From the NCBI GenBank assembly GCA_002477275.1, contig DLOU01000046.1, forward strand, positions 25,046-85,340: DNA of 60,295 nucleotides, given 5' to 3'. The notes below the pieces were generated by a model, which saw nothing but the letters and a program-made list of their open reading frames with translations, made no database searches and was not told where the DNA came from. Each line of letters opens with the position of its first letter. Positions within the stretch are counted from its first letter, which is position 1. Shown in pieces: positions 1,057 to 25,672 of this stretch. Origin of the DNA: Bacillales bacterium UBA7476. Lineage in GTDB: Bacteria > Bacillota_I > Bacilli_A > RF39 > UBA660. The position numbers and the translations under genes are program-made.

Positions 1057-2070
1057 CTATCTTTCTAATATCCAATCTTGTAAATATTTAATTTTTGTTC
1101 CACAAAACTTACATTTACCAGTAGTTGCATCAATTGATGCTCCACAGTTTGGACACATAATAATATTCTTTCCTTCTTTTAATTCAAGTTTACCTTCTAT
1201 ATTTTTCTTCATAGTAAATGTATCTTTAATATATTTTGATTTTATTTTACCACTTTCGAAACTAATTATTCTTAACTCTATTTCAGTATCTACATATATA
1301 TTGTCATTTTTTTCATATTTGTTAAACGAATTATAATCAAGAATATCAAAATCAATTACATTTTCTTTTGTAAAATAGTACTTTTTAATTTCATAGTTTA
1401 AATTATTGAAAAATGTTTTTTTGTCTATTTGTGAAGTATCCCAAAATATTTTTTGTTTTTCATTTTCATTATCCTTATATCTTTTAATTGGTCCTAAAAT
1501 GATGTATGCATCAATAGTATAAAATAAATAGTATAAAATTAGTGAAAGAATAGCTCCATAAATAAATACTTTTGAAACATCATATGAATTAAATGTTCTA
1601 GATGTTGTTTTAATAAAAATAAAACTTATTATTAAACTTATTACTATATCTACTACTGCTGTTATTATTCTATAAGTAGTATTTCTTAATACTCTATCAT
1701 AGTGATATTTATTTCCTAATTCTTTATCTGTATAATCAATATTATAATATGTTCCACAATATGGGCATCCATCTAAAAAGTTTTCTATTTTAGCTTTTGC
1801 TCCACAGTTTGGACATATATTTTCTTTTTGTTCTTCTTCTTTTGATATAAAAGTATATTCTATTCTTGTATCAAAATCTTTTTCTTCGTGTTTTAATTGT
1901 CCATTTACATAGTACTTTTTTTCTAATCTTATACCTTTTTTAATATCATCGTTTTTTGAATTATCAGTGTTTCTTTCTAGAACTTCTCTATCAACAATAT
2001 ATTTGGTTTTAATGTTAATTTTATTTGAATCTAGTTTTTTCTTTTGATATTCTTCTGATATTAATGCCAT
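1057..2070 (-). CDS. membrane protein with two zinc ribbons flanking two TM helices; function unknown
   Basis: 337 aa. Zinc ribbons are CPNCGAKAKIENFLDGCPYCG and CPNCGASIDATTGKCKFCG. Hydrophobic segments are ITAVVDIVISLIISFIFI and VFIYGAILSLILYYLFY. Confidence 0.55.
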   Translation of the reverse strand: MALISEEYQKKKLDSNKINIKTKYIVDREVLERNTDNSKNDDIKKGIRLEKKYYVNGQLKHEEKDFDTRIEYTFISKEEEQKENICPNCGAKAKIENFLDGCPYCGTYYNIDYTDKELGNKYHYDRVLRNTTYRIITAVVDIVISLIISFIFIKTTSRTFNSYDVSKVFIYGAILSLILYYLFYTIDAYIILGPIKRYKDNENEKQKIFWDTSQIDKKTFFNNLNYEIKKYYFTKENVIDFDILDYNSFNKYEKNDNIYVDTEIELRIISFESGKIKSKYIKDTFTMKKNIEGKLELKEGKNIIMCPNCGASIDATTGKCKFCGTKIKYLQDWILER

Positions 2071-2081
2071 ACTACCACTTC

Positions 2082-2459
2082 CTATCTATTGTTGTTATTA
2101 TTGTTATTATTATTGTTATTATTATTGTTGTTGGAAGAACCACCTGAGTAACTGCTGTGGCTTCTACTTCCTCCCCCACTATAATGAATCGGTTCAATAT
2201 AGTGAGGATATACTTTTATTGAATCTTTTGTTAATAAAAGTCCATCAATACTAACAGATTTTCTTGTTAAAATGGTATCTTTTAAAATATCTCCATTATA
2301 TAAGGAAACACTAGTTGTTCCACCTTTTACTGTTCCATTATTTTTTACCCATTCATAGATTCTTTCTATTTCTTCTTTTGATAATTCATAGTACTTAGTT
2401 AGTTCTATACATCTTCTTTGTAAAATTAGTTCTTCATATGTTTCAGGTTCTTTATTCAT
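2082..2459 (-). CDS. small protein with a Gly/Ser/His/Tyr-rich tail ending in Asn15-Arg; translationally coupled to the radical SAM gene
   Basis: 125 aa. The tail is YPHYIEPIHYSGGGSRSHSSYSGGSS followed by N15 and R. Its start codon overlaps the radical SAM stop by 8 nt (ATGAATAA). Confidence 0.5.
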   Translation of the reverse strand: MNKEPETYEELILQRRCIELTKYYELSKEEIERIYEWVKNNGTVKGGTTSVSLYNGDILKDTILTRKSVSIDGLLLTKDSIKVYPHYIEPIHYSGGGSRSHSSYSGGSSNNNNNNNNNNNNNNNR

Positions 2460-4203
2460 TTTTTAACTCCTTATCTATATAATAAAATTCAATATTTTGA
2501 AATGGTAAATTAATCGCTTCTATATGATAATATGCATTGTTTTTTTGTTTTGTATAATGATAATCTCTTAATGCTGTTGTTGTGAAAAATAAATTGTTTG
2601 CTTTTTCTTTTGATATAAAATCTTTGTATTCTTTTATTTGATTAGTTATGTCATAGCAATAAAAATCTTTTTTATCTGATTTTGTATTATCTAGTACACC
2701 CTTATAAACTTGATGAGTCATTACATGTCTTTGCTTTGTTCTGTTCTCATCACCATATGTTACTAAATCTCCTGATAAAAGCATTATATATAATGCATTA
2801 TTCTCTGGATAATCACATTCTTCTTCTATTAAATTCTTTTTCATATATAATTTTACTTTTGAATTTGGTGTTATAAATACAAACTCTCTACTGTTTTTTA
2901 ATATTTGTGATTCAAGTTTATATTCTGTATTATCTACTTTTAATATAAATGAATCTTTATCATAGATGTATTTTAATTTAGGATCTTTATCTATTATTTC
3001 TTCAAGCGTCCCATTAATACTATCTTTCTTTTTTGGAACATATTTATCTAAATCTACTGTTCTCATTTTTGATAAATATTCGTATACAAATTCTTCATTG
3101 TATTCATCTTTTTGATAATTTCTATCTTTGTACATTTTTTGTTGAAGTAGACAAGTATAACTTTTATTTGTCTTGTATGTATTTTTTACAAACGGACAAC
3201 CTGTTTTACATAAGTATAAATATCCACATTTTGCACATTCTTCATTAAAACCTTCTTTATTATGATTCATAAATATCTTTTTTTGTGCTGTTTGTAAAAT
3301 CTTATCCACAGAATCTGTGTATATATTTCCATAATAATAGTCCTTTTGTTTCTGACCTCTAACGCAAGAATAAATATCCCCATTTTTTTCTAATAAGAAA
3401 AACTTTTCTCCACAGTTATCACAATTAGGACAATATCCTGGACCAAATTCATCAAACCATGCATTGTTTACTCCATAATCTAGGTCTGTTCCATCAAATT
3501 CTTTATGCATTCTATCATATAGTTCTAATTGTTCTTCTTCAGTAATATGATGAAGAATTCCACATGAATTATAGTCAAAACCTATCATAAAGTTGAAATC
3601 ATTCATATCAAGGCATGTATTTTTATTTAAATACTTTATATCTTCTACTATTTCATCTAATTTATTAAAATGTTCTTTAAATATAGTTGCAGATACTTTC
3701 TTTTTATTTGGTATATTCCTTAATAATTCAATATTTTTTAATATTCTATCAAGTGTTTTCTTATTACCTTTTGTAATCCTGTATTCATCATGAAGTGATA
3801 ATGGCAAATCTAGGCTTCCTGATATAGATACATTAAATTCTTTTATTGTATCTATATGTTTTTCTAAGTCATATAAATTTGTCTTTATGTGAGGATTTCC
3901 TATTTTGAAGCCACCTGATGTGATTATTTCTTTGTTTTTTTCGTAGTAATCACTTATAAATTTAATAATTTCTCTAAAATCATTTTTTGATAACGTTGTT
4001 ACTTCTCCACCATGTAGCGAAATATTAAATGGTATAACATTATTATCTTTTAGTTTATTTACTGCATATTCTAGTGTTTCTAGTGGACTATACTTTGTTT
4101 TTTCATCTTTTGTATTATCCTCTAAATAACAATATTTACAACACATATTACATGCCATTGTAGGTACATATAATAAATGAATATATTTATAATCTGTATT
4201 CAT
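2452..4203 (-). CDS. radical SAM / SPASM-domain enzyme with a ~230-aa C-terminal extension
   Basis: 583 aa. The CX3CX2C motif is at C18/C22/C25 (ACNMCCKYCY), with HGGEVT as the GGE-like motif. The SPASM signature is CGEKFFLLEKNGDIYSC (CX10GX4C) plus CAKCGYLYLCKTGC (CX2CX5CX3C) and a trailing Cys. Confidence 0.85.
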   Translation of the reverse strand: MNTDYKYIHLLYVPTMACNMCCKYCYLEDNTKDEKTKYSPLETLEYAVNKLKDNNVIPFNISLHGGEVTTLSKNDFREIIKFISDYYEKNKEIITSGGFKIGNPHIKTNLYDLEKHIDTIKEFNVSISGSLDLPLSLHDEYRITKGNKKTLDRILKNIELLRNIPNKKKVSATIFKEHFNKLDEIVEDIKYLNKNTCLDMNDFNFMIGFDYNSCGILHHITEEEQLELYDRMHKEFDGTDLDYGVNNAWFDEFGPGYCPNCDNCGEKFFLLEKNGDIYSCVRGQKQKDYYYGNIYTDSVDKILQTAQKKIFMNHNKEGFNEECAKCGYLYLCKTGCPFVKNTYKTNKSYTCLLQQKMYKDRNYQKDEYNEEFVYEYLSKMRTVDLDKYVPKKKDSINGTLEEIIDKDPKLKYIYDKDSFILKVDNTEYKLESQILKNSREFVFITPNSKVKLYMKKNLIEEECDYPENNALYIMLLSGDLVTYGDENRTKQRHVMTHQVYKGVLDNTKSDKKDFYCYDITNQIKEYKDFISKEKANNLFFTTTALRDYHYTKQKNNAYYHIEAINLPFQNIEFYYIDKELKNE

Positions 4204-4222
4204 AATCTCCCCCTAACCTTGT

Positions 4223-4984
4223 TTATGGATATATAATTCCTGCGCTAGTTATATTATTGTAGTTATATTCTCCAAATGTTCCATAATAATTAATATTTGT
4301 TGGGCTTTCCTTAAATGCTCTTTCATTAACTGATACTCCTTGTGGTAAATTAATATTATATAGACTTGTACATTGTCTAAATGCAGATGAACCAATTTCT
4401 TTTAATTTGCTATTTTCTGATATATAAACTGTAGATAGACTTGAATCTCCATAGAATGCATGTCCACCAATTCTTGTTACAGAATCAGGTATATTTATAC
4501 TTCTTAGTGATGTGCAATATTCAAATGTATCTCCCCTTATTTCTGTTAATTTATCTCCCAATTCAACTGTTTCAAGTGATTTTGCATTATAAAATGCTTC
4601 TCCTCCAAGATGAACTAAGTTATTTGGTAGTTTAATTGATTTTAATGATGTTGCATTGTAGAATGCTCCTCCATCTATATAAGTAACTGTTTCTGGAATA
4701 TCTATTTCTTCTAATGATGTACAATTTTTAAATGCACTTCCTCCAAGTGATTGTAATTTTTTTGGTAATTTAACTTTTTTTAGTTTTGTATCATTTTTAA
4801 AAGCTTGTCCTCTTATTTCTGTTATTGAATCAGGCAGCGTAGCTTCTTCTAAATTTTTCATATTTGAAAAAGCATTTCCTCTTAAACTAACTACTTTTTC
4901 TCCTTTATATGTTTCTGGGATTGTTACAGTTTTATTGTTTGTTAAACCATAAGCATAGAATCTTACCCCATAACCGTTTGGCAT
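4223..4984 (-). CDS. leucine-rich-repeat protein (BspA-like LRR)
   Basis: 253 aa with about 8 repeats of the pattern LP..(L/V)..I(G/R)..AF..C.SL..I.IP. There is no signal peptide of its own. The start overlaps the upstream membrane-protein gene by 22 nt. Confidence 0.7.
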   Translation of the reverse strand: MPNGYGVRFYAYGLTNNKTVTIPETYKGEKVVSLRGNAFSNMKNLEEATLPDSITEIRGQAFKNDTKLKKVKLPKKLQSLGGSAFKNCTSLEEIDIPETVTYIDGGAFYNATSLKSIKLPNNLVHLGGEAFYNAKSLETVELGDKLTEIRGDTFEYCTSLRSINIPDSVTRIGGHAFYGDSSLSTVYISENSKLKEIGSSAFRQCTSLYNINLPQGVSVNERAFKESPTNINYYGTFGEYNYNNITSAGIIYP

Positions 4985-5949
4985 TTTTCATAAAGTATTT
5001 TGGGTTCATAGAAAATAATAAGTGGTAAAACAATTGCAATCACCATAGTTAAAATTCCAAGTAATTTACTGTAATCTTTTATTAAATTTTCTTTTGTAGA
5101 CATTACAATATTACTTATTTTTTCGTTAGGCCTTGCTTTTATTTCTTTTGATATTATTGATAGTATATTTACTTTTCTAGATAATATAAAAACAACCATT
5201 AATATTATTATCCCTATTACATATGTAGTTTTTGGAAAATGGAAGAATATTAGTGATATAAATGTAAATATTAATAAACTCATTATTGTATTAATAATAA
5301 TTCTCTTTTTCTGAAGTTCTTTTGTAGTAAAACTTCTAAGTGAAGATAATCCTTCTTTCTTTAACTCTCTATTTACAAATTCTTCTATCATTTTTTCTTC
5401 TGATAAGCTATACATTGAATCATAATCTTTAATTGTTGATGGTAATCTAGATATTAATACTTTGATTTTTTGTGGTTCTACTGGTTTTCCACAAATTGGG
5501 CAAAATTTATCTGTTTCTTTGATTGCTGCTGAACAATTCTGACATTTTAATGCTTTTTCTGCTTCTGTTAGAGGTTTAATAGGAATTACTGATATACTTT
5601 CTCTTTCTTTTTCTCCTGCACCGGTTATTGCTTCTATCATTGAAATTATTGTTGGTACAACAAATATAGATATAAAATCAATAATTACAGCTGTATCTTC
5701 AATGATACTATACAATATCCATAACAAAACAAATTTTCCAATTAATATAAGACAGAATATACCTTTTTGATTTCCTCCATTACTTAAAATTCTTGAAAGT
5801 GGGATTATAACAAAGGGTATTTCTATAATTGTAATAACTATTTCCATGGCTATCATTCCAGAAATATCTGTTTGACCTGGGGCAGATTCTGCAAAAACTG
5901 TTAATGGTATTAATAATAACAAAAATAATAATAAACTTCTTTTTTTCAT
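4963..5949 (-). CDS. polytopic membrane protein with signal peptide and internal zinc ribbon
   Basis: 328 aa. The signal-like N-terminus is [20 protein letters not shown]. There are several hydrophobic helices and a zinc ribbon CQNCSAAIKETDKFCPICG. Confidence 0.5.
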   Translation of the reverse strand: MKKRSLLLFLLLLIPLTVFAESAPGQTDISGMIAMEIVITIIEIPFVIIPLSRILSNGGNQKGIFCLILIGKFVLLWILYSIIEDTAVIIDFISIFVVPTIISMIEAITGAGEKERESISVIPIKPLTEAEKALKCQNCSAAIKETDKFCPICGKPVEPQKIKVLISRLPSTIKDYDSMYSLSEEKMIEEFVNRELKKEGLSSLRSFTTKELQKKRIIINTIMSLLIFTFISLIFFHFPKTTYVIGIIILMVVFILSRKVNILSIISKEIKARPNEKISNIVMSTKENLIKDYSKLLGILTMVIAIVLPLIIFYEPKILYEKCQTVMG

Positions 5950-5987
5950 ATTCTTATCCTTTCAAATTATCATATTATTATATTTTG

Positions 5988-5996
5988 ATTATAACA
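5988..5996 (-). promoter_or_regulatory. extended -10 element TGTTATAAT upstream of the 5949->241 operon
   Basis: The minus strand reads TGTTATAAT about 40 nt upstream of the ATG at 5949, immediately after the terminator of the sigma gene. Confidence 0.4.
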
Positions 5997-6004
5997 TATT
6001 TTAA

Positions 6005-6031
6005 GATAAAAAAAGAGCTCTTTTAAGCTCT
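6005..6031 (-). terminator. rho-independent terminator of the giant sigma gene
   Basis: A 6-bp stem AGAGCT/AGCTCT starts right after the stop codon at 6032 and is followed by a U-run on the minus strand. Confidence 0.6.
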
Positions 6032-9000
6032 TTAATCATTATATTTATAAAACTTTTTTCTTCTAGTTATTTCTTTGATTATAGATTCTACTTTTCCTGT
6101 TTTGTTAGAACTATCCATTACTTCTTTTAAAAGTTTATCTCCTTGATCATAGTATTCCGATTTATATAAGTATTTACATAGTTTTAATTTTATAATTTGT
6201 TTTTCTGTTTCAGAAATATCTAACTCATCTAATTCATAATCTATATTTTTATTTTGAAGTATTAAACCAAAAAATTTATTATAATCAATTTGAACTTTAT
6301 TTTGCTTTTTTACTTCTATTTCTTCTTGTGGTTTAATTTTTTGAATTTCCTCTTGTATTTCTGTCTCTTTTGTTTCAGTAAAACTATCAAGTTTTTTCTT
6401 AATAAGTGTAATTAGGAAATCTAGTTCTATATTTTTCAAAAAGTCAAGGTCATTATATTTACTTAATTCATTAGAAATACTAATATAATCTTTTGCTTTT
6501 TCTCTTAAATTGTTATTCTCATCCATAAGTGATACATAACATACTCCAATCATGTAATAAACATCAGTATTATTTATGTATTTATCTTCTCTTAATGATA
6601 ATAGTTTTTTTAGTGCTTCACTAAAGTCATGATTATTATAATCTTCTTTTGCTCTTAAGAATAATTCATCTTCATTTTCAGATGGTTTTTCATTAAATTT
6701 TCTTACCACTAACTTCTTATCTTTATCACCAACAAAAATCACCTTAATATTATGATCTTTAACTAATTTTTCTTTTGCTTTTATTAAATTACTATTATTA
6801 TCATCTATAATTATAAGTTCATTATCAGTTAAATCATTATAATTACTGCTTTCAAGATTAACGTTTTCTAGAATGTTTTCAAATTCTAATAACCTGTTAT
6901 TTTTTAATTCATATCTTAATACTTTTTTTCTCTTATATATTTCTTCTATATTACCTTTTAATAAACATTCTTCGTTTAGAGAGTCTATATTTAGAATGAT
7001 ATTTAAACATATTTCACTTAGTTCTATATCGTTATCCATTAATGATTTATAAAATTTTTGAACAATTTCTGCAAGAAGTAAATTTAAATTTGGCTTTTGA
7101 ATGCTTGCTAAAAACATTAGTGGACTAGTATAATTATTGTCTTCTTCTAAAATTGATGTTCTAATCAAATTTAACGCTAAGTCAAAATATTCGTTTTTAT
7201 TATTTTGATTTAAATATCTTTTTATTTCTAATAAACCATTTTCTAGGTCATTATTAGATAGATAAATCGCTATATCTTGAAAGTTCGTATTATCTTTTAC
7301 TTCTTCCTCTTGACTTTTTTCTTTTATTTTTATTTCTCTTAGTAATATTTCTATTATATCCTTTTTGTTTTTTTGTTCTTTTAATGTATTTAAAGCTTCT
7401 AATATATTATTGTCATATATTAATAAACGTATATTATTATCATTATTATCTTCTAAACTTTTTATTTCATTTACATTAAATAATTTTACTTTTTCTTTAT
7501 ACTCTTTAGGGAGTTCATATACTTTTGAAATAAGTAAAAGTATTAAATTATAATAATGTTTTTCATTTTCTTCAGTATTGCCTATTAATAAATCTAAATA
7601 TTTTAGTGTTTGTTCATATTTTTTGTTCTTAATACTATCTTCTAATAAATAATCATTAACTTCTATATTTTTTGGATCTATTTTGTAGCATTTATCTAAT
7701 ATTTTACTTGCAAATACTTTTTGTCCTTCTCTTAGCATTCCATTATATAATTCTAAAAGAAGTTCTACTTTACTACTTGATATTTCGTAAATACCATTAT
7801 TTAGAGTAAGATAATTATTATTTATTAGATAGTCTAATGTTTCTTTTCCTACTTCAGACAAATCTTTTTCTGTTAAATTATCACCCATGCAGAATGCTAA
7901 AAAGATTTTCTTTATGGTTATTCTTTGTTTTATTTCTTCCTCTTTTTCTCTTGCTAAAATTAAATTGTTATTCTCTTCTCTTTGATTTTCTAGTCTTTTT
8001 TTAAGGGTTATTGATAACAGATTTCTAATATATTTTTTTTCATCTATAGATATATCTTTTTTTATAACTGGATTATGTAAGTCTTTTCCATAGTAATCAT
8101 GTAATTTAATAAACTGATTATTGTTAAGCCCTTTTATTACATAGTCAACTTCTTTTTCTGAATATCCATAAGCTTTGAAATAATCATAAATATTGTCTGT
8201 GTTAGAATATTTTTTTACTTTTTTATCTTGTTTTATTCTTTTTAATTTGTTCTTTATAGTTAACGTTACAAGATTTCTAAGTTGTAATTCTTCTTTATTA
8301 CTTTTTTTGATTACTTTAGTACTTTTGTAATCCTCTCCGTAATATGTTTTCAATATTTCTTTTTGGTTTCCTGTCAAACTATTTAGTACTTCTTTTATTT
8401 CATCTTCTGTAAAACCATATGCAAAACAATATTCATATAGGTTTTTTATTGAAATTCTTTGTCTTTCTTTAGCATTATTATGTTCTTTTGTATCAGGCTT
8501 TTTTTCTATATTTCTACTTTTTTCTAGTTTTTTCATTAAATTAACACATAAAAGATTTCTAACACGTATTTTGTCGTTTTTACTTATTTTATCATTTATA
8601 ATAGGATGCTCTAAATCTTTTCCATAGTATAAAATAAGTAATTCTCTTTGATTATCATTTAAATTATCTAATACTTTATTAACTTCTTCTTTTGTATATC
8701 CATGAAACTCAAAATATTCATATATATTATTTATAGATGCTCTCTTTTTAGTGCTTACAGTTTCACTATTTTCTTTTAAATGTTTTATTTTTTGCTTTAA
8801 AGTACCTGTTACTAAATTTTTAATATATTTTTTATCATTTGAATCTATTTGATCATTAATAATGGGATGTTCTAAATCTTTTCCATAATACAAATATAAT
8901 TTTTCTAATTGTTTTTCATTTAGACTATTTAATAAATTATTAATTTCTTCTTTTGTATATCCATAATTCATAAAATACTCATATATGTTATTTATATTAT

Positions 9001-11185
9001 TATAATGTCTCTTTTGTTTTTGCATATTTTTTTCCTTCTTTGATTTTGTTTTGTTTTGATTTTCTCCTATAATACTTATTTCTATTTTATATAATGAATT
9101 TATTATTGTTACATAACTTTGATTGTTTCTTTTAATTTTATCTTCATCACTTTGATTATAATATTTATTTATAATAAATCTAGTTTTATCGCTTAAAGTA
9201 TCTAATAATTTGTCTATTTCTTCTTTTGGATATTCATAACCTTTAAAAAAATCATATACACTTTTATCTAATAATTTAACAAATCTTTCTGTACTATAAT
9301 TTAATAGTATTTCTTTCATTTTTGGAAAGATTTCTTCATATACTCTCTTTTTAATTTTCTCATCACTTAATAATTCATCATTTGGATTATCTAATTCAAT
9401 GCCAAAACATTTATATATAAGTTTTTTTTCTTCTTCACTTAATAGTAAAAATGCATATTTAAATTTGAAATTTGAATATTCTTCTTCAGCAAAATATTCA
9501 TATATATTTTTATTTTGTTTTTCTACTAAATTTGGTATTGTATCTAACAATATCTTTCTAAGCATTTCTTTTTCTTCAGCTGTTATGTTTTTATTTTTTA
9601 TTTTTTGATAATTATCTATATATATTTTATCTAATAACTCTTTTTCTTCTTTTGGTAATAGTTTTAGTGCTCTCTCTATTTTATTTTTCTTATAACCATA
9701 TCTTTGATAAAATCTAAAAATTGAAAGAGGAATGGATGATTGTGGCAGTTTCAATTCTAGAGTAGTATTATTCCGTTTATTTTTATTTTTTAATCTTTCC
9801 TCTATCAATATTGGTTTAATTTTTTCTTCTATTATTTTAACAATCGTATCTCTTGAAATGTTTTTATTAATTATAGTAGGGCTGATTATTTCATTGTTGT
9901 AATAGCTATTTAATAATTCTATATCAGATTCTTCTAATTGTTCTAATACTTTTCTTAATTCTTTCTCATTTATGTGAAAATCTATTAAGTATTCTTTTAT
10001 ACTCTTTCCTTTTTCATTTTCTGATTTCTTTTTATCATTTACTTTACTTATAGATTTTGAATACATTTTTTTTAAGGCTCTCTTTTCAATCTGTCTAATT
10101 CTTTCTCTAGTACAATTAAATATTATTGATATTTTTTCTAATGATTTTTTTTCTTTTCCATTTATTCCAAATCTATACTCAATTACTTCTTTTTCCCTTT
10201 GTGTTAAAGAATCTAATAGGGCTGTAATCATTTTTATTTCATCATCCATAATTGCAGATTCTTCAGGGCTAGGTTTATCGTCACTAATTACATCTTTAAA
10301 TTCTTTATCACTATCAAGTTTCTCACTTGATATCTTTTCGTCTAAACTAATTGTATTTTCGGCATATTGTTTTATTTCCAATACTCTTTTTTCAGGTATA
10401 TTTAATTCTTTACCTATCTCATAATCTGTTGGTTCTCTTCCTAATTTTGATTCAAGTTCACTACTTTTTCTTCTGATATCAGATATTTTTTCTTGAATAT
10501 GAACAGGTATTCTAATATTTCTGCTATTATTTTGAATAGCTCTCATTATATTTTGTCTTATTTCCAAATATGCATAAGTTGTTAAAGAATATGATTTTGC
10601 TGGATCAAACTTATCAATTGCTTCCATTAATCCAATACTTCCTTCTTGAATTAACTCTAAAAATGAAATTCCTCTACCAATATATTTTTTTGCAATATTA
10701 ACTACTAATCTTAAATTATGTTCAGTTAACTTATCTTTTGTTTTTTTATTTCTTGTATTATAGTACTCTACTAACAATTCTCTTTGTTCTTCTTTTGGTA
10801 AGATAGGATATTTTGATATTTCTTGTAAATATATTTTAACAGAATCATATCCATTTTCTTTTATTGAATATGAGTCTTCTATTGATTCAACTGCTTCCAT
10901 TTCAGCTGTTTCTTCATTAAAGATTGAATTATATATATCAATCAATGATATAGCATATTCGCTTAGCCCTATGTTTTCTATATTCATTTTTCTTTCGTTT
11001 ACTTCATTTATAATTTTTTCAAGCAAACTATTTAAATTTTCATTTATCTTAATTAAATTATATATTTGATCAAAATTAAGATCCTTTTTTGATATGAGTG
11101 ATGAAATTTCATTAGCATATCTTACAAGGGTAGGTAATGAATTATCATTTATATCAAGTTGTTCTATTTCAGTTATTTCTTTCAT
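6032..11185 (-). CDS. giant (1717 aa) sigma-70 family protein: SigA-like regions 1.2-4, then eight tandem modules, then a TPR-like helical tail
   Basis: Residues ~115-375 align by eye with SigA. Matching segments are NLRLVVNIAKKYIGRGISFLELIQEGSIGLMEAIDKFD, IRIPVHIQEKI and REKEVIEYRFGINGKEKKSLEKISIIFNCTRERIRQIEKRALKKM. The remaining ~1340 aa have no parallel in ordinary sigma factors. Confidence 0.8.
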   Translation of the reverse strand: MKEITEIEQLDINDNSLPTLVRYANEISSLISKKDLNFDQIYNLIKINENLNSLLEKIINEVNERKMNIENIGLSEYAISLIDIYNSIFNEETAEMEAVESIEDSYSIKENGYDSVKIYLQEISKYPILPKEEQRELLVEYYNTRNKKTKDKLTEHNLRLVVNIAKKYIGRGISFLELIQEGSIGLMEAIDKFDPAKSYSLTTYAYLEIRQNIMRAIQNNSRNIRIPVHIQEKISDIRRKSSELESKLGREPTDYEIGKELNIPEKRVLEIKQYAENTISLDEKISSEKLDSDKEFKDVISDDKPSPEESAIMDDEIKMITALLDSLTQREKEVIEYRFGINGKEKKSLEKISIIFNCTRERIRQIEKRALKKMYSKSISKVNDKKKSENEKGKSIKEYLIDFHINEKELRKVLEQLEESDIELLNSYYNNEIISPTIINKNISRDTIVKIIEEKIKPILIEERLKNKNKRNNTTLELKLPQSSIPLSIFRFYQRYGYKKNKIERALKLLPKEEKELLDKIYIDNYQKIKNKNITAEEKEMLRKILLDTIPNLVEKQNKNIYEYFAEEEYSNFKFKYAFLLLSEEEKKLIYKCFGIELDNPNDELLSDEKIKKRVYEEIFPKMKEILLNYSTERFVKLLDKSVYDFFKGYEYPKEEIDKLLDTLSDKTRFIINKYYNQSDEDKIKRNNQSYVTIINSLYKIEISIIGENQNKTKSKKEKNMQKQKRHYNNINNIYEYFMNYGYTKEEINNLLNSLNEKQLEKLYLYYGKDLEHPIINDQIDSNDKKYIKNLVTGTLKQKIKHLKENSETVSTKKRASINNIYEYFEFHGYTKEEVNKVLDNLNDNQRELLILYYGKDLEHPIINDKISKNDKIRVRNLLCVNLMKKLEKSRNIEKKPDTKEHNNAKERQRISIKNLYEYCFAYGFTEDEIKEVLNSLTGNQKEILKTYYGEDYKSTKVIKKSNKEELQLRNLVTLTIKNKLKRIKQDKKVKKYSNTDNIYDYFKAYGYSEKEVDYVIKGLNNNQFIKLHDYYGKDLHNPVIKKDISIDEKKYIRNLLSITLKKRLENQREENNNLILAREKEEEIKQRITIKKIFLAFCMGDNLTEKDLSEVGKETLDYLINNNYLTLNNGIYEISSSKVELLLELYNGMLREGQKVFASKILDKCYKIDPKNIEVNDYLLEDSIKNKKYEQTLKYLDLLIGNTEENEKHYYNLILLLISKVYELPKEYKEKVKLFNVNEIKSLEDNNDNNIRLLIYDNNILEALNTLKEQKNKKDIIEILLREIKIKEKSQEEEVKDNTNFQDIAIYLSNNDLENGLLEIKRYLNQNNKNEYFDLALNLIRTSILEEDNNYTSPLMFLASIQKPNLNLLLAEIVQKFYKSLMDNDIELSEICLNIILNIDSLNEECLLKGNIEEIYKRKKVLRYELKNNRLLEFENILENVNLESSNYNDLTDNELIIIDDNNSNLIKAKEKLVKDHNIKVIFVGDKDKKLVVRKFNEKPSENEDELFLRAKEDYNNHDFSEALKKLLSLREDKYINNTDVYYMIGVCYVSLMDENNNLREKAKDYISISNELSKYNDLDFLKNIELDFLITLIKKKLDSFTETKETEIQEEIQKIKPQEEIEVKKQNKVQIDYNKFFGLILQNKNIDYELDELDISETEKQIIKLKLCKYLYKSEYYDQGDKLLKEVMDSSNKTGKVESIIKEITRRKKFYKYND
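7916..10000 (-). repeat. eight tandem in-frame coding repeats (~72-95 aa each) inside the giant sigma gene
   Basis: Unit starts lie near 10000, 9726, 9510, 9263, 8989, 8727, 8443 and 8194. The best-conserved units read NIYEYF..YGYTKEE(V/I)N..L..LN..Q.E.L.LYYGKDLEHPIIND.IS..DK..(I/V)RNLL...L.KKL. Confidence 0.75.
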
Positions 11186-11305
11186 ACCTTATCCCCCATG
11201 TATTAACTTATATTTATTTTAACATATTTAACTTTAAAATTATATTTTTTTATTAGTTCTTTATGTTTTTTTATTTTTATTTTATAATTATTTTAGGTGA
11301 TAATT

Positions 11306-12748
11306 ATGAGTAAAAAAGAAAAAGTATTTTATATTTCATCATTTTTATTTTATTTATTTATACTTTCTCTTTCTCCAATTTCAGGTGATGATTGGGGAAA
11401 CTACATTGCAGGAAGTAATGGTTTATATCATTGTATAGGTAATGCGGTTGGTATGTATTTTTCGTGGGAAGGAAGGTTTGTAAGTAGAGTACTTATTAAC
11501 ATACTTACTTATCATAAAATACTATGGAATATTGTTAATGCATTTTTAATTGTTTTATTTAATTACTTATGTATTAAAATTATAAAACCAAAAAATAATA
11601 AATTAAGCTATTTGTTTGTTTTTTTGATTATACCATTTATGAATCTGTATACATTCTCTCAAACTATAACATGGGTTGCTGGAAACATTACTTATTTCTT
11701 TGAAATACCACTTATTTTAATATACTATATGATGTTATCAAAGAAAAAATATGATTTTAAATTTAACTTTATTTTTCTATTATTGTTAAGTGCTTCTATA
11801 CCGATGTTTGCTGAACATATGGCTGCAATTCTTGTAATTGGTAACTTAATTATTCTTTTTTATAATTATTATAAAACAAAAAAAATTGATAAGAAAATCA
11901 TAATTTTTACTATAGTTGCAATAGTATTTACTTTACTAATGTATTTATCTCCAGGAACAAAATTAAGATCTGCAAGTGAAAATCTTGACTTTAATAAACT
12001 AAGTATACTTGGAAAAATAATATATAATATTCCAGCCTTTGTTTACTATACTTTTATGGATAATTACTATTTACTTGTGTTATTTATAATTACTAATTTT
12101 GTTATAATTAAAAAGAGATTTAAGAAAAAATGGATAAAAATTTTATTAACTTTATTTTTAACAGTTGTTCCTTTAATAACACTTATTATTTATCCACTTA
12201 GTGTAGTTAAAAATATTAATATTATTAATAATATATGGTTAATTATATATTATATAGTTTTCTTAATAATTTCTTTCTTTTTAAATATCTTTGAAAAAAA
12301 TAAAGAAAGTACGTTTTTATTTATTATTGGTATAATGGCGAATTGTGTTATGCTAATGTCTCCTACCTGGGGATATAGAACAACATTATTTACATATATG
12401 ATGTTGGCTCTTGCTAATATAATTTTAATAACAAAATACTTAAAGAATAACAAGTTTATAGAATATATTTTAAAGTTATTTAGTATTATAATTTGTATTA
12501 TGTTTATTGTTCTTTACATAAATATATTTAGATGTCAAAAAGATTTAGAAAAAGGTATTAAAAAACAGTTAAAAGAAAATAAAGATGTAATAGATGTTGT
12601 GATGTTCCCAAATTATGTTAATTGTAATATTAATCCTGATAATGACTTTCATCTAGTTAAATATAAAGAATACTATAGTATTCCACAAGATAAACAAATT
12701 AATTTTATTGATGGTAAATGGCATTACTTTGTTATTTATAAAAAATAA
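11306..12748 (+). CDS. polytopic membrane protein, GT-C-like / DUF6056-like (putative glycosyl- or lipid-linked sugar transferase)
   Basis: About 480 aa with at least 12 hydrophobic helices and an N-terminal SPISGDDWGNY motif. The ATG at 11306 with RBS AGGTGA is preferred over the track's GTG at 11297. It is divergent from the giant sigma gene. Confidence 0.5.
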   Translation: MSKKEKVFYISSFLFYLFILSLSPISGDDWGNYIAGSNGLYHCIGNAVGMYFSWEGRFVSRVLINILTYHKILWNIVNAFLIVLFNYLCIKIIKPKNNKLSYLFVFLIIPFMNLYTFSQTITWVAGNITYFFEIPLILIYYMMLSKKKYDFKFNFIFLLLLSASIPMFAEHMAAILVIGNLIILFYNYYKTKKIDKKIIIFTIVAIVFTLLMYLSPGTKLRSASENLDFNKLSILGKIIYNIPAFVYYTFMDNYYLLVLFIITNFVIIKKRFKKKWIKILLTLFLTVVPLITLIIYPLSVVKNINIINNIWLIIYYIVFLIISFFLNIFEKNKESTFLFIIGIMANCVMLMSPTWGYRTTLFTYMMLALANIILITKYLKNNKFIEYILKLFSIIICIMFIVLYINIFRCQKDLEKGIKKQLKENKDVIDVVMFPNYVNCNINPDNDFHLVKYKEYYSIPQDKQINFIDGKWHYFVIYKK

Positions 12749-12780
12749 ATAATCCACAATTATTGTGGATTATTTTTTTA
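12748..12780. terminator. bidirectional stem-loop AATAATCCACAAT/ATTGTGGATTATT followed by a T-run
   Basis: A near-perfect 13-nt inverted repeat sits between the convergent genes and overlaps the sirtuin stop codon. Confidence 0.65.
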
Positions 12781-13612
12781 GTTTTTCTATTAAATCTATT
12801 GTTTCATAAATACTATCAGATACAGAAATAGATTTGTTTTTTATTTCTTTTGGTACTTCTGAATATTTATCGTTAAATCTCACTAATTTAAAATTATCAT
12901 GTAAAAATGTTAATTCTTCAAAAGGGAATCTAATTATTCCTGGTGTATTAAATCCTATTCCAAATTCTAATAGCAATACTTTATTATCAATATTTTCTTC
13001 AATAAAATTATAATATTCTTCTTTCATTTTGTGCCAGTTATCATCTTCTACAAATGTATCATCACATCTTAAATTTACAGACATATTTTTTCCACACACA
13101 GGACATTTTGGTACTAATTCTGTCGGAATTTTCAAATTATCATCTATATTATTTAACATCTCATATACTTGTTCTTCATTATCGTATAGCTTGTTATGAC
13201 ATGGCTTACAGCATTGTAATTTAGAATAACTTCCTTGCACTTCAAATACCTTAGATTTATCAAAACCATTATTAATAAACTGACCATCAGTATTAGTTGT
13301 TATTACAAAATATGTTTTATCTTTTACTAGCTCAAATAACTTCTTATATAATTCGGTATGTTTTCTTTCATAATACGAAAAGAATATATGTTTTGCCCAA
13401 TATGCCCATTTTTCTTCTTCTGTTTTAAATGGATAAAACGATGAAGTATATAAATCAGTTATTTTATATTTATTAATAAAATCTTTAAAATCATTTTCAA
13501 ATTTTTCTCCACTATAATGAATACCGGCTGCATCTGATAGTCCTGCTCCTGCACCAATTATTATTACATCTGATTCATCTAACCATTCTTTAATTTTTAC
13601 TATATCTGTCAT
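12770..13612 (-). CDS. Sir2-family protein, macrodomain-linked (class M-like) sirtuin
   Basis: 280 aa. Motifs are IIGAGAGLS (GAGxS), TTNTDGQ (TQNxD-like) and two CxxC pairs (CKPC, CPVC). VQGS has Gln where canonical sirtuins have the catalytic His-Gly. The start lies 9 nt after the macro gene stop (TAAGGAGAAAATATG). Confidence 0.8.
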   Translation of the reverse strand: MTDIVKIKEWLDESDVIIIGAGAGLSDAAGIHYSGEKFENDFKDFINKYKITDLYTSSFYPFKTEEEKWAYWAKHIFFSYYERKHTELYKKLFELVKDKTYFVITTNTDGQFINNGFDKSKVFEVQGSYSKLQCCKPCHNKLYDNEEQVYEMLNNIDDNLKIPTELVPKCPVCGKNMSVNLRCDDTFVEDDNWHKMKEEYYNFIEENIDNKVLLLEFGIGFNTPGIIRFPFEELTFLHDNFKLVRFNDKYSEVPKEIKNKSISVSDSIYETIDLIEKLKK

Positions 13613-13621
13613 ATTTTCTCC

Positions 13622-15133
13622 TTAATTAATACTATTTTTATATAGCAAGTAATCTTCATCTTTAAAAACATTAAATATAATATGATTAAATGAATTATTA
13701 TTATCATTTAAATATTTGGTTACAGTATCTATTGCAATTTTGCATGCTTCTTCTTTTGGAAATCCATATAAACCTGTTGAAATGCATGGAAAAGCTATTG
13801 TTTTTATACCATTTTCTTGTGATAGCTTTAAGGCATTATAATAACATTTTTTCAAATCCTCTACATCTTGTTCTTTTAATCTGCCTCTTACAGCGGGACC
13901 TACTGTTTGTATAACATATTTACTTGGTAAGTTATAACCTTTAGTTAATATTACCTCTCCATTAGATAAAGTTTTTCCCTTCATTATTTCATTACATTCT
14001 TCCCTTAACTGTATACCAGCAAATGAATGAATTGCATTGTCTATACAATTATGACCTGGTACAAAGCATCCTAATAAATATTCATTGCAGGCATTTACTA
14101 TAGCGTCACATTTTAACGTTGTTATATCACCTTTCCAAACGGAAAGTATTCCTTTATCATAACTAATATCTTCTTCATCTATTATACCTTTATTCTCTAT
14201 TTCTTCTTGTAAATATTTATCCTGTTTTTTTAGATATTCACTACTAATTTTCTTTGGCTTTCTAATATTTCTTAAACCTCTATATAATGCTTTTTTATCT
14301 TCTAAATTATTTGGTATTTTTATCTTTGATAACGCTTTATCTTCGTCAATTAATTCTTGAATTAAATAATCGAGTTCTTTTATCTTTTTCTCTTCATTAT
14401 ACTTTTTTAGATAATCAAAACCTATTACAATTTTTTCATTTATTGGAGTTTCTTCACTATAAACATCTCTTAACTTATCAATAACTAGTTCTTCTCCATC
14501 ATACATTTTATAAAAACTATTATAGCCCTTTTCTTCAAAATCAAACAGCTTATTAAATGGTTTATTATTTAGTATTGGATCTGTTACTATTTCACTATAT
14601 TCCCACTCAATATATGGGGAATCATAATATCTTCTAGGAGTTTTTGGAAATAACTTTTTCCATTTTTCAAACCACAAGAAATGAAGTGTTTCATGAGCGC
14701 ATGTTTCAATTACTTTCCAGTCCTCTATTCCAGTTCCTACTGAAAAACTAAATTCATCTAGATATCTTGGAAATACTGGTATTAGTCCTACTTTTGCTTC
14801 TATTTCTTTTTTAGGCCATTCTATTTCTAAATAATCTGATAGCATCTCAAAATAGCTATCATTATATTCAATCCATAATTTATTATATCTTTCAGTTTCC
14901 TCTTGAAGCCTATTTGTGTATTTTTCATAATCTTTTTTTACTATGTCTTCTATTATTATGTACACTTCTTCTTTTGATAATTTTTCATCCAAATCTGCTA
15001 ATTCAGGGAAATATGATACTGTGTAATTATGAACGCTTAATAAACCATTATTCTCATAATATGCCCATTTAATTGTATCTATATTTTCTTCAAGACTCAT
15101 TTTTTTAAATAATAATTTTGGTACTTTTTTCAT
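13622..15133 (-). CDS. two-domain protein: N-terminal HExxH domain (~250 aa) fused to a protein-ADP-ribose hydrolase-type macrodomain
   Basis: 503 aa. The C-terminal half has LYRGLRNIRKP...SEYL, VWKGDITTLKCDAIVNACN, GHNCIDNAIH, VIQTVGP and IAFPCISTGLYGFP, typical of sirtuin-linked macrodomains. The N-terminal half has CAHETLHFLW (HExxH) at 14681-14695. Confidence 0.85.
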   Translation of the reverse strand: MKKVPKLLFKKMSLEENIDTIKWAYYENNGLLSVHNYTVSYFPELADLDEKLSKEEVYIIIEDIVKKDYEKYTNRLQEETERYNKLWIEYNDSYFEMLSDYLEIEWPKKEIEAKVGLIPVFPRYLDEFSFSVGTGIEDWKVIETCAHETLHFLWFEKWKKLFPKTPRRYYDSPYIEWEYSEIVTDPILNNKPFNKLFDFEEKGYNSFYKMYDGEELVIDKLRDVYSEETPINEKIVIGFDYLKKYNEEKKIKELDYLIQELIDEDKALSKIKIPNNLEDKKALYRGLRNIRKPKKISSEYLKKQDKYLQEEIENKGIIDEEDISYDKGILSVWKGDITTLKCDAIVNACNEYLLGCFVPGHNCIDNAIHSFAGIQLREECNEIMKGKTLSNGEVILTKGYNLPSKYVIQTVGPAVRGRLKEQDVEDLKKCYYNALKLSQENGIKTIAFPCISTGLYGFPKEEACKIAIDTVTKYLNDNNNSFNHIIFNVFKDEDYLLYKNSIN

Positions 15134-25012: not shown

Positions 25013-25672
25013 TTAAATATATTTACATGCTTCTTTAATGCTTAAATCACTCATTTGATTTTTATACTTGTTTATAAAGTTTTTTACCCAATTTTGATCT
25101 GTTTTTGAATATTCTCTTAATGCCCAACCAATAGCTTTATTTATAAAAAATTCATCTGTTCCAAAATTATTTACTATTATCTTTTCCAATAATTCATAAT
25201 CTGTTTTATCTTTTAAATTCAATTGATGTTCTATTGCAGTTCTTTTAATCCAAATATTATCATTTTTTGACCATTCAAGCATTAGTTCTTTTACTCTTGA
25301 ATCACGAAGTTCCACATCACCAATTACCTTACATAAAAAATCTATTGTATCCCACCAAGATTTAGTGATGATATAATTTTTAATCTTAGTTATATCTTCA
25401 TAGGAAACATATTGTTTCATTGCAAGTAAATAATCATAAACCAAATATTGAAATTCTCTATGATTATCTTCATAGCATTTATCTAAAAATTTCCAATCTA
25501 TTTTTTTTATTTTCTTTTCAGCCTTTATAAAATAATTATATACTTCTTTTCTTTTTGGAGTTGGTAGACCATAAAAATCAAACATGTTTCTCATATATTT
25601 TGACATAGCAACAGCATTCTCTTTATCTTCTCTTGATTCAAATATTTTTTTTATTTCTAAATACTTATCCAT
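25013..25672 (-). CDS. DNA alkylation repair protein (AlkD/AlkC-like HEAT-repeat family)
   Basis: 219 aa. The pattern is ENAVAMSKYMRNMFDFYGLPTPKRKE ... WWDTIDFL ... WIKRTAIEHQL ... FINKAIGWALREYSK. Confidence 0.7.
   Translation of the reverse strand: MDKYLEIKKIFESREDKENAVAMSKYMRNMFDFYGLPTPKRKEVYNYFIKAEKKIKKIDWKFLDKCYEDNHREFQYLVYDYLLAMKQYVSYEDITKIKNYIITKSWWDTIDFLCKVIGDVELRDSRVKELMLEWSKNDNIWIKRTAIEHQLNLKDKTDYELLEKIIVNNFGTDEFFINKAIGWALREYSKTDQNWVKNFINKYKNQMSDLSIKEACKYI

Follow-up and report, generated by a model that had tools for sequence, protein, structure and literature searches.

The locus described here raises the question of what a sigma factor would do with eight further domains, each resembling its own region 4, appended in tandem behind a complete core. 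It lies in a 60,295-nucleotide stretch of contig DLOU01000046.1 from Bacillales bacterium UBA7476 (positions 25,046 to 85,340; this whole stretch is hereafter called the window). An earlier note, made from the sequence alone, had described eight tandem modules at 7916-10000 that look like degenerate copies of sigma region 4. This interval lies on the reverse strand and corresponds to amino acids (aa) 396-1090 of a 1717 aa open reading frame (ORF). Our analysis suggests, with a probability of roughly 0.6, that the modules form a flexible, multivalent tether or interaction array on a giant sigma factor, built of domains that derive from region 4 and no longer contain its helix-turn-helix (HTH). 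The structural side of this reading comes from profile comparisons and AlphaFold2 models, while the function is one that we infer.

The protein consists of a complete SigA-like core, eight four-helix domains of approximately 75 residues each, and a 627-residue TPR-like domain (Table 1), so that roughly 1340 residues extend beyond the core. A protein of the same length from an independent assembly, P0002, is 99% identical over a gapless alignment, with 13 of the 1717 residues differing, and the number of modules is therefore not an assembly artefact. Within the core, Pfam placed region 1.2 at aa 114-137 (24.1 bits), region 2 at aa 154-222 (58.8 bits), region 3 at aa 232-310 (56.4 bits) and region 4 at aa 323-374 (78.1 bits), each score exceeding its cut-off. 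The best relatives of the core are SigA, RpoS and SigB, and its best relatives in the PDB are SigA proteins of Firmicutes, among them C. difficile SigA (7l7b_F, 2.4e-59). It aligns with the Firmicute SigA structures 7l7b_F, 8x6f_E and 7ckq_F over regions 1.2 to 4, and its region 4 keeps the canonical recognition helix TRERIRQIE. The window protein differs from those SigA proteins in its long C-terminal extension, in an altered region 2.3, and in missing the RpoD equivalog cut-offs of NCBIfam (236.8 versus 572 bits for PRK09210, and 230.6 versus 354 bits for RpoD_Cterm). It differs also in its surroundings: immediately upstream of the gene no ORF has the length of a primase, and none of the closest upstream ORFs scanned encodes DnaG. 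The change in region 2.3 is at aa 207 (10565-10567, reverse strand), where the window protein reads TYAYLEIRQ, P0002 reads TYAYWEIRQ and canonical SigA reads TYATWWIRQ. Either the conserved promoter-melting tryptophan has been lost here through a TGG-to-TTG-type change, as the sequence would suggest, or the base is a sequencing error.

Table 1. Coordinates in the window of the giant sigma-factor gene, its parts and the adjoining terminator-like site (HMM, hidden Markov model; i-E, independent E value)
Feature	Positions	Strand	Basis
Whole gene, 1717-aa giant sigma-70-family protein	6032..11185	-	single intact ORF; stop codon 6032-6034
Sigma-70 core (aa 114-380)	10046..10846	-	Pfam r1_2, r2, r3 and r4 above gathering cut-offs
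Module 1 (aa 394-471), divergent, YYNNEIISP	9773..10006	-	family HMM 19.1 bits, i-E 7e-5
Module 2 (aa 488-560)	9506..9724	-	family HMM 38.2 bits, i-E 7e-11
Module 3 (aa 559-633), family-typical FPKMK kept in helix 4	9287..9511	-	family HMM 48.0 bits, i-E 7e-14
Module 4 (aa 641-707), most degenerate	9065..9265	-	family HMM 25.2 bits, i-E 9e-7
Module 5 (aa 732-806)	8768..8992	-	family HMM 67.4 bits
Module 6 (aa 819-892), modelled by AlphaFold2	8510..8731	-	family HMM 77.0 bits
Module 7 (aa 914-987)	8225..8446	-	family HMM 49.6 bits
Module 8 (aa 997-1072)	7970..8197	-	family HMM 63.2 bits
C-terminal 627-aa helical TPR-like domain	6035..7915	-	weak MamA match; collinear with P0162 and P0163
Terminator-like hairpin (9 pairs) with T run, overlapping the stop codon	6012..6033	-	consensus scan, pattern match only

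All eight modules reported in the earlier note are present. An HMM built from 895 instances of the module in other proteins scored every one of them, at 19-77 bits, and an HMM made from modules 5-8 alone recovered modules 1-4 at independent E values of 5.7e-9 to 1.6e-4. Module 4 matches profile positions 1-63 only and is poorly matched in its C-terminal half. The consensus pattern that the earlier note had drawn up describes modules 5-8 well and modules 1-4 only loosely, and its statement that the last four modules are the most alike was borne out, with pairwise amino acid identities of 35-52% within modules 5-8 versus 18-30% for pairs involving modules 1-4. The recent duplication that it had proposed for these last four can hold for modules 5 and 6 at most (73% nucleotide and 58% amino acid identity), which are the only modules closer to one another than to modules of the orthologues. 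Modules 7 and 8 find their best matches in orthologues, module 8 in the final module of P0003 (50% identity).

The best matches of module 3 are the modules in the third array position of P0007 and P0003 (in P0007 the label m1 was given to the true region 4, so its module in the third array position is labelled m3). The variant turn of module 1 (YY..NII.P) is also found in the first module of P0003 and P0011, and not in that of P0007. Modules 1-4 keep such position-specific variants across orthologues that are approximately 30% identical in the proximal modules, while the distal modules of the 'YYG.DL.NP.IN' type differ in number among the orthologues (3-6). Tandem Repeats Finder detected no repeat with the module period of approximately 250-290 nucleotides (nt) in 6000-13000, and nucleotide identity between modules is 55-73%. 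Because the position-specific variants are kept, modules 7 and 8 match orthologues best and no repeat of the module period was detected, these comparisons indicate that the array is old, with at most one lineage-specific duplication.

In order to determine the origin of the module, a profile of the 895 instances, from which true region 4 had been removed, was aligned by hhalign to a profile of 41 true region 4 sequences. The two matched at a probability of 93.8% (P=1.7e-7) over 34 columns comprising the helix of region 4.1 and the turn that follows it, which supports the distant relationship to sigma region 4 that had been proposed for the module. Control profiles of region 2 and region 3 gave no hhalign match to the module profile. 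When the clean module HMM was searched against 1029 six-frame ORFs from the window and unrelated loci, region 4 of sigma factors belonging to other phyla was the only thing matched besides the module-bearing genes. An Aerophobetes sigma factor (locus L002) matched this HMM at E=8e-5, collinearly over profile positions 12-69 and hence across both 4.1 and 4.2, and Desulfofundulus sigma factors matched in region 4 at 1e-3 and 7e-3. Among 148 diverse instances of the module, sub-threshold Pfam matches were found to Sigma70_r4 in 52 (best E value 5.8e-4) and to Sigma70_r4_2 in 46 (best E value 1e-4), the next family being matched by 14. The family consensus matched seven NCBIfam models, all seven of them sigma factors and each at its region 4 end, and its best match in PHROGs was phrog_351, 'RNA polymerase sigma factor'. 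The top PDB sequence match of a profile of the eight modules was S. aureus SigA (8x6f_E, E=0.019), at the junction of regions 3.2 and 4.1. Taken at the level of sequence, these results make it highly probable that the module descends from sigma region 4.

Region 4 (PF04545/PF08281) is thus the best and nearly the only relative of the module by profile comparison. The two have in common the 4.1 motif L..L(S/T)..E.E(L/V)L.L(R/Y)(Y/F)G, a like length, collinearity over 4.1 and 4.2 and a basic C-terminal helix at the end. Helices 2 and 3 of the module are the counterpart of region 4.1, and the recognition helix of 4.2 together with the C-terminal helix has its counterpart in the long basic helix 4 of the module. 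The module differs in that it falls below every curated threshold, does not conserve the residues that contact the -35 element, and occurs in 1 to about 20 tandem copies where region 4 occurs once. It also differs in structure, having an added N-terminal aromatic helix (IYEYF) that is absent from region 4, and a G-x-D-L-x-N-P loop where region 4 has the first helix of the HTH.

The structural differences were seen in AlphaFold2 models. Module 6, modelled with an alignment of 148 sequences, was predicted with a mean predicted local distance difference test (pLDDT) score of 89.8 as four helices, at residues 3-9, 14-22, 26-36 and 51-77. Residues 37-50 (GKDLEHPIINDKIS) form in this prediction an ordered loop at the place of the first HTH helix, and a loop was seen at the same place in all four modules of a tandem model. 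In the models, then, the first helix of the HTH is replaced by the conserved G-x-D-L-x-N-P loop. In the HMM alignment, the -35-contacting residues of TRERIRQ in the protein's own region 4 fall on family columns ~55-59, which mostly hold F/L/I/V, Y/N, N/K and I/L, the R, E, R and Q not being conserved. The most conserved positions over the 895 instances are I-Y, L22, Y-G and D-L-x-N-P, and these look like core and turn residues. With sub-threshold Pfam scores, a loop in place of an HTH helix and hydrophobic -35-reading positions, the module is unlikely to be a working region 4. It is a charge dipole, its N-terminal half having a mean net charge of -2.5 and its C-terminal half one of +2.5.

The tandem model covered modules 5-8 (348 aa, from an alignment of 25 natural four-module windows) and consisted of the same four-helix module four times, each at a pLDDT of approximately 90, with an overall predicted template modelling (pTM) score of 0.37. 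Two of its three linkers were below a pLDDT of 50. Across the family, 536 linkers had a median length of 11 aa (10th to 90th percentile 5-26) and were 18% lysine, with G, P, S and N also present. Neither the four-module model nor the family linkers gave any sign of a rigid superhelix or of a fixed spacing. The array is accordingly predicted, from these models, to be a flexible string of independently folding beads, roughly 700 residues in extent, joined by disordered lysine-rich linkers.

The window protein is one member of a large family. A profile of its eight modules was used in an exhaustive HMMER search of 1.84 billion representative proteins and matched 405 at E<=1e-3, of which 34 reached E<=1e-30, with up to 19-22 matched stretches per protein. 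Iteration on the best 150 proteins produced the 895 clean instances, with the consensus KTIYEYFSDGYSKEEIDEAISKLSEEEKELLKLRYGEDLDNPISNKELSKEEKKKFYNIIIKKIKKLLKK. No model in Pfam, NCBIfam or PHROGs covers the module. The few members with names go under 'hypothetical protein' or under 'sigma-70 family RNA polymerase sigma factor' and come from metagenome-assembled genomes of 'Bacilli bacterium'. Modules whose context could be read were joined to sigma domains, in proteins of uncultured gut Bacilli. A search of the literature on repeated or duplicated sigma region 4 found nothing relevant, and neither this family of modules nor the architecture of the giant sigma factor appears to have been described.

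Architectures were counted in the best 150 of the 405 proteins. The sigma domain is N-terminal to the array in 63 and C-terminal to it in seven. A conserved tail domain of approximately 90 aa ends 98 of the 150, including P0004, P0009, P0015, P0017, P0020, P0063 and P0150, and its consensus includes LSPKEAIIISLKLGYVDNKYFSIEEIAEFLNISEEEV. A profile built from tails only matched true region 4 in hhalign at a probability of 97.8% (P=9e-13) over 59 columns, and by this comparison the tail is a second, intact region-4-like HTH. The hhalign link from tail to module is weak (45%, P=2e-4) and we did not use it as a bridge in the argument for descent. The usual plan of the family is a sigma core, a variable number of modules and a terminal region-4-like HTH, and in members that end in the tail two region-4-type HTH domains are separated by up to about 19 modules. 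One protein with 19 modules at the thresholds applied, P0005, is numbered next to a 447 aa sigma protein, P0152; judging by cluster membership and lengths, the two are split in one assembly and joined in another as the 2081 aa P0153, which is known by its length. At the other extreme of copy number, an uncultured mouse-gut Bacilli genome (MGBC162581; locus L001, 6001-8774) has two adjacent sigma genes, of 505 and 354 aa, with one module each C-terminal to region 4.

Stand-alone copies of the module, for which the earlier note had recommended a search, were found neither in the window, which has no further ORF with a module, nor at the loci read. Eight small database proteins (P0164-P0171) were candidates for such copies. 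The two whose loci were read, P0164 and P0168, proved to be fragments of sigma-module genes. P0164 is a truncated gene at a contig end, P0168 lies in a frameshifted sigma-module gene (locus L010), and P0167 starts inside a region 4 recognition helix. At L010, on a 449-kb metagenome contig (2194-6661), SecA and the sigma-module gene are each split into several short ORFs. Such splits are typical of the frameshift errors of long-read assembly, and they give rise to spurious 'stand-alone module' proteins in databases.

The window protein belongs with P0002, P0003, P0007 and P0011, which have a SigA-like core, 6-10 modules, and a C-terminal domain of 500-770 aa instead of the tail. This C-terminal domain had no Pfam match. 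Besides its weak match to the TPR protein MamA, it is collinear with two stand-alone proteins, P0162 (phmmer E=6e-21) and P0163 (E=8e-14). P0162 has an R3H domain above the Pfam cut-off and sub-threshold TPR matches; the R3H domain was not detected in the window protein. These free-standing counterparts, approximately 700-760 aa in length (P0162 and P0163; locus L007, 9001-11295), occur in other assemblies, which makes the window protein a fusion. The neighbours of the stand-alone P0162 include no sigma or module gene in the Pfam table of called genes.

We envisage that the sigma core would carry out promoter recognition and RNA polymerase binding, and that the array would not read -35-like sites. 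The array would instead serve as a multivalent and flexible tether, or as a scaffold for interactions, by which the terminal domain stays joined to the sigma factor, this terminal domain being a probable protein-binding sensor in the window protein and a second HTH in most relatives. Along its length the array would offer many weak contact surfaces of low specificity for polymerase, regulators or nucleic acid, with the acidic N-terminal half of each module as one such surface, and with the basic helix 4 and basic linkers as others that could touch nucleic acid or polymerase.

Several observations count against this proposal and have to be set beside it. The hhalign alignment is local and limited to the 34 columns of the 4.1 part. 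The Pfam gathering score for region 4 (24.1 bits for Sigma70_r4, 25.7 bits for Sigma70_r4_2) was reached by none of the 148 instances, and module 6 itself scored 16.9 bits, over profile positions 1-22 of 50 only. The top Foldseek matches of the AlphaFold2 model are to region 4 of SigA (6onu, 6ono, 4g8x and 8cwt), but they are not significant (E 2.7-9.3, template modelling scores 0.41-0.52). A sigma domain was not seen in 80 of the 150 relatives. Several sigma-less or small proteins are fragments, and part of the 80 may be true proteins in their own right. A simple tether would not account for a copy number that ranges from 1 to about 20, and the basic helix 4 and basic linkers could still bind DNA. 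The uniformly sub-threshold matches to curated region 4 models and the insignificant fold matches, together with weak matches to UBA_6, WIYLD, RuvA_C and FakA-like_C, might even mean that the likeness to region 4 is convergent or compositional, and that the module is a small helical repeat of other origin (UBA-like or RuvA-C-like, for example) within a protein rich in lysine, glutamate and asparagine. This we regard as very improbable, since five independent libraries or profiles gave sigma region 4 as their top or sole match, the controls with regions 2 and 3 were negative, and the proteins that contain the modules are sigma-linked, often with true region 4 domains on the flanks of the modules. 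UBA_6 was matched by 10 of the 148 instances versus 52 for Sigma70_r4, and we rejected a UBA-like, RuvA-C, WIYLD or FakA-like_C identity for the N-terminal half of the module, these matches being rarer and weaker than those to region 4.

If descent from region 4 is accepted, each module might still be a DNA-binding domain of the region 4 type, and the array might read successive -35-like sites, as a multi-HTH array protein would. The collinearity of one HMM alignment with the full region 4, the strongly basic character of helix 4 and the linkers, and the intact region-4-like HTH at the end of most family members are all compatible with this. The earlier note had suggested that the modules could bind arrays of -35-like sites or, as another option, might mimic the targets of anti-sigma or activator proteins. 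That they bind such arrays by means of a canonical HTH is unlikely, since the AlphaFold2 models have no first HTH helix and the positions equivalent to base contacts are hydrophobic and not kept as R, E or Q. In addition, the 60-kb window contains no suitable tandem arrays of short DNA motifs, and flexible linkers fix no spacing; in any form we consider a -35-reading array improbable. The modules might also be region 4 decoys that bind the partners of region 4, namely the beta-flap tip helix, anti-sigma factors or activators, and thereby inhibit their own sigma factor, titrate regulators or bring several polymerases together. Region 4.1 forms the flap-binding surface in known holoenzyme structures, the best-conserved similarity of the module is to region 4.1, and multivalency would suit a role in titration or clustering. 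Against this, the extra N-terminal aromatic helix may, speculatively, itself fill the 4.1 groove, and no anti-sigma gene is evident beside the gene, so that we hold a decoy role to be rather unlikely. That the array is a functionally neutral repeat expansion, a junk linker in an AT-rich genome, would accommodate the wide variation in copy number, from 1 to about 20, and the differing number of distal modules among orthologues. It is scarcely credible given that modules 1-4 keep their position-specific variants across orthologues of ~30% identity, that core residues are conserved over the 895 instances and that the ORF is intact in two assemblies. The flexible tether or interaction array remains the reading that we prefer. 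Going further, and quite tentatively, the repeat arrays could be an unrecognised class of sigma appendage, each a multivalent string of up to about 20 domains that would bind the polymerase beta flap, regulators directed at region 4, or upstream DNA many times over by its region-4.1-like surfaces and basic helices. If true, this would mean tethered transcription hubs, or a built-in buffer for anti-sigma factors and activators, in uncultured AT-rich gut Bacilli, and a new principle of sigma regulation.

The window protein was also compared with known systems. Extracytoplasmic function (ECF) sigma factors with regulatory C-terminal extensions have been described, among which the TPR-rich extension of ECF42 is essential for activity and is thought to act through protein interaction (PMC8999054). 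As in ECF41 (SnoaL-like), ECF42 (TPR) and ECF238 (CorE), a sigma factor is here fused to a C-terminal non-sigma domain, and the window protein, like ECF42, ends in a TPR-like part. It differs from these groups in having a SigA-like sigma factor with regions 1.2 and 3 rather than the minimal ECF core of regions 2 and 4, and an extension of ~1340 rather than ~200 residues, in which the region-4-derived array has no ECF counterpart. Its nearest functional analogy would be with the regulatory extensions of ECF41, ECF42 and ECF238, which it resembles in function only. MzaA, of the MZA anti-phage system, is likewise a large sigma-70-family protein with extra domains, and the sigma core of the window protein matches MzaA models, whereas its non-sigma parts are unmatched. 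We rejected identity with MzaA, or a defence role of that kind, because only the generic sigma core matches, at 225 bits versus a cut-off of 800 (positions 420-659 of 683 in the PADLOC profile). The five neighbouring genes scanned include no MZA partners, and the only match to the defence library was a weak one of the radical SAM gene described below to a viperin-family model (1.2e-7).

The window has a G+C content of 25.8% and is an ordinary chromosomal region of a walled Firmicute, encoding SecA, DnaB, ArgRS, MurA, enolase, a class A penicillin-binding protein (PBP1) and an L31 leader. A phage origin of the module was rejected for this reason, and also because PHROGs gave only the sigma-factor family and matches to BFVD folds were not significant. 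Neither an anti-sigma gene nor an MZA partner nor phage genes were found near the sigma gene. The hairpin at its 3' end (Table 1) is the only terminator-like site in 4800-11500, which suggests, as far as a pattern match can, that the sigma gene ends its own transcription unit. Upstream, a 110-nt AT-rich divergent intergenic region contains 2.6 copies of a 21-nt tandem repeat, TTATATTTTTTTATTAGTACT (11240-11295), and separates the sigma gene from a divergently transcribed gene for a DUF6056 membrane protein (11297-12748, forward strand). Downstream on the same strand as the sigma gene, 1057-5949 encodes a 328 aa unknown protein, a leucine-rich-repeat protein (4223-4984), a radical SAM/SPASM enzyme resembling peptide maturases (2452-4203), a 125 aa ORF and a zinc-ribbon protein (1057-2070). 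The group may be a gene cluster of the type that produces ribosomally synthesized and post-translationally modified peptides (RiPPs). Beyond the DUF6056 gene, and on the reverse strand, a Sir2-family gene (12770-13612) adjoins the gene for a 503 aa macro-domain protein-ADP-ribose hydrolase (13622-15133). This pair resembles the sirtuin/macrodomain (SirTM-type) pairs of ADP-ribosylation systems, which are known in Firmicutes.

Sigma factors are among the best-studied of bacterial proteins, and the elaborations known in them are region 1.1 at the N-terminus, inserts that are not conserved and, in some ECF groups, a single regulatory domain at the C-terminus. The case described here differs from these in that region 4 was duplicated, lost the HTH with which it reads DNA and was amplified to between 1 and about 20 copies. 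The resulting family comprises at least 405 sequence clusters, for which we found no Pfam or NCBIfam model and no paper, and which would allow better annotation of many 'hypothetical' or truncated sigma genes in metagenomes from gut and bioreactor. If the arrays are only tethers, they still constitute a new domain family; if they bind polymerase, regulators or DNA multivalently, they would represent a new way of controlling or localising the initiation of transcription.

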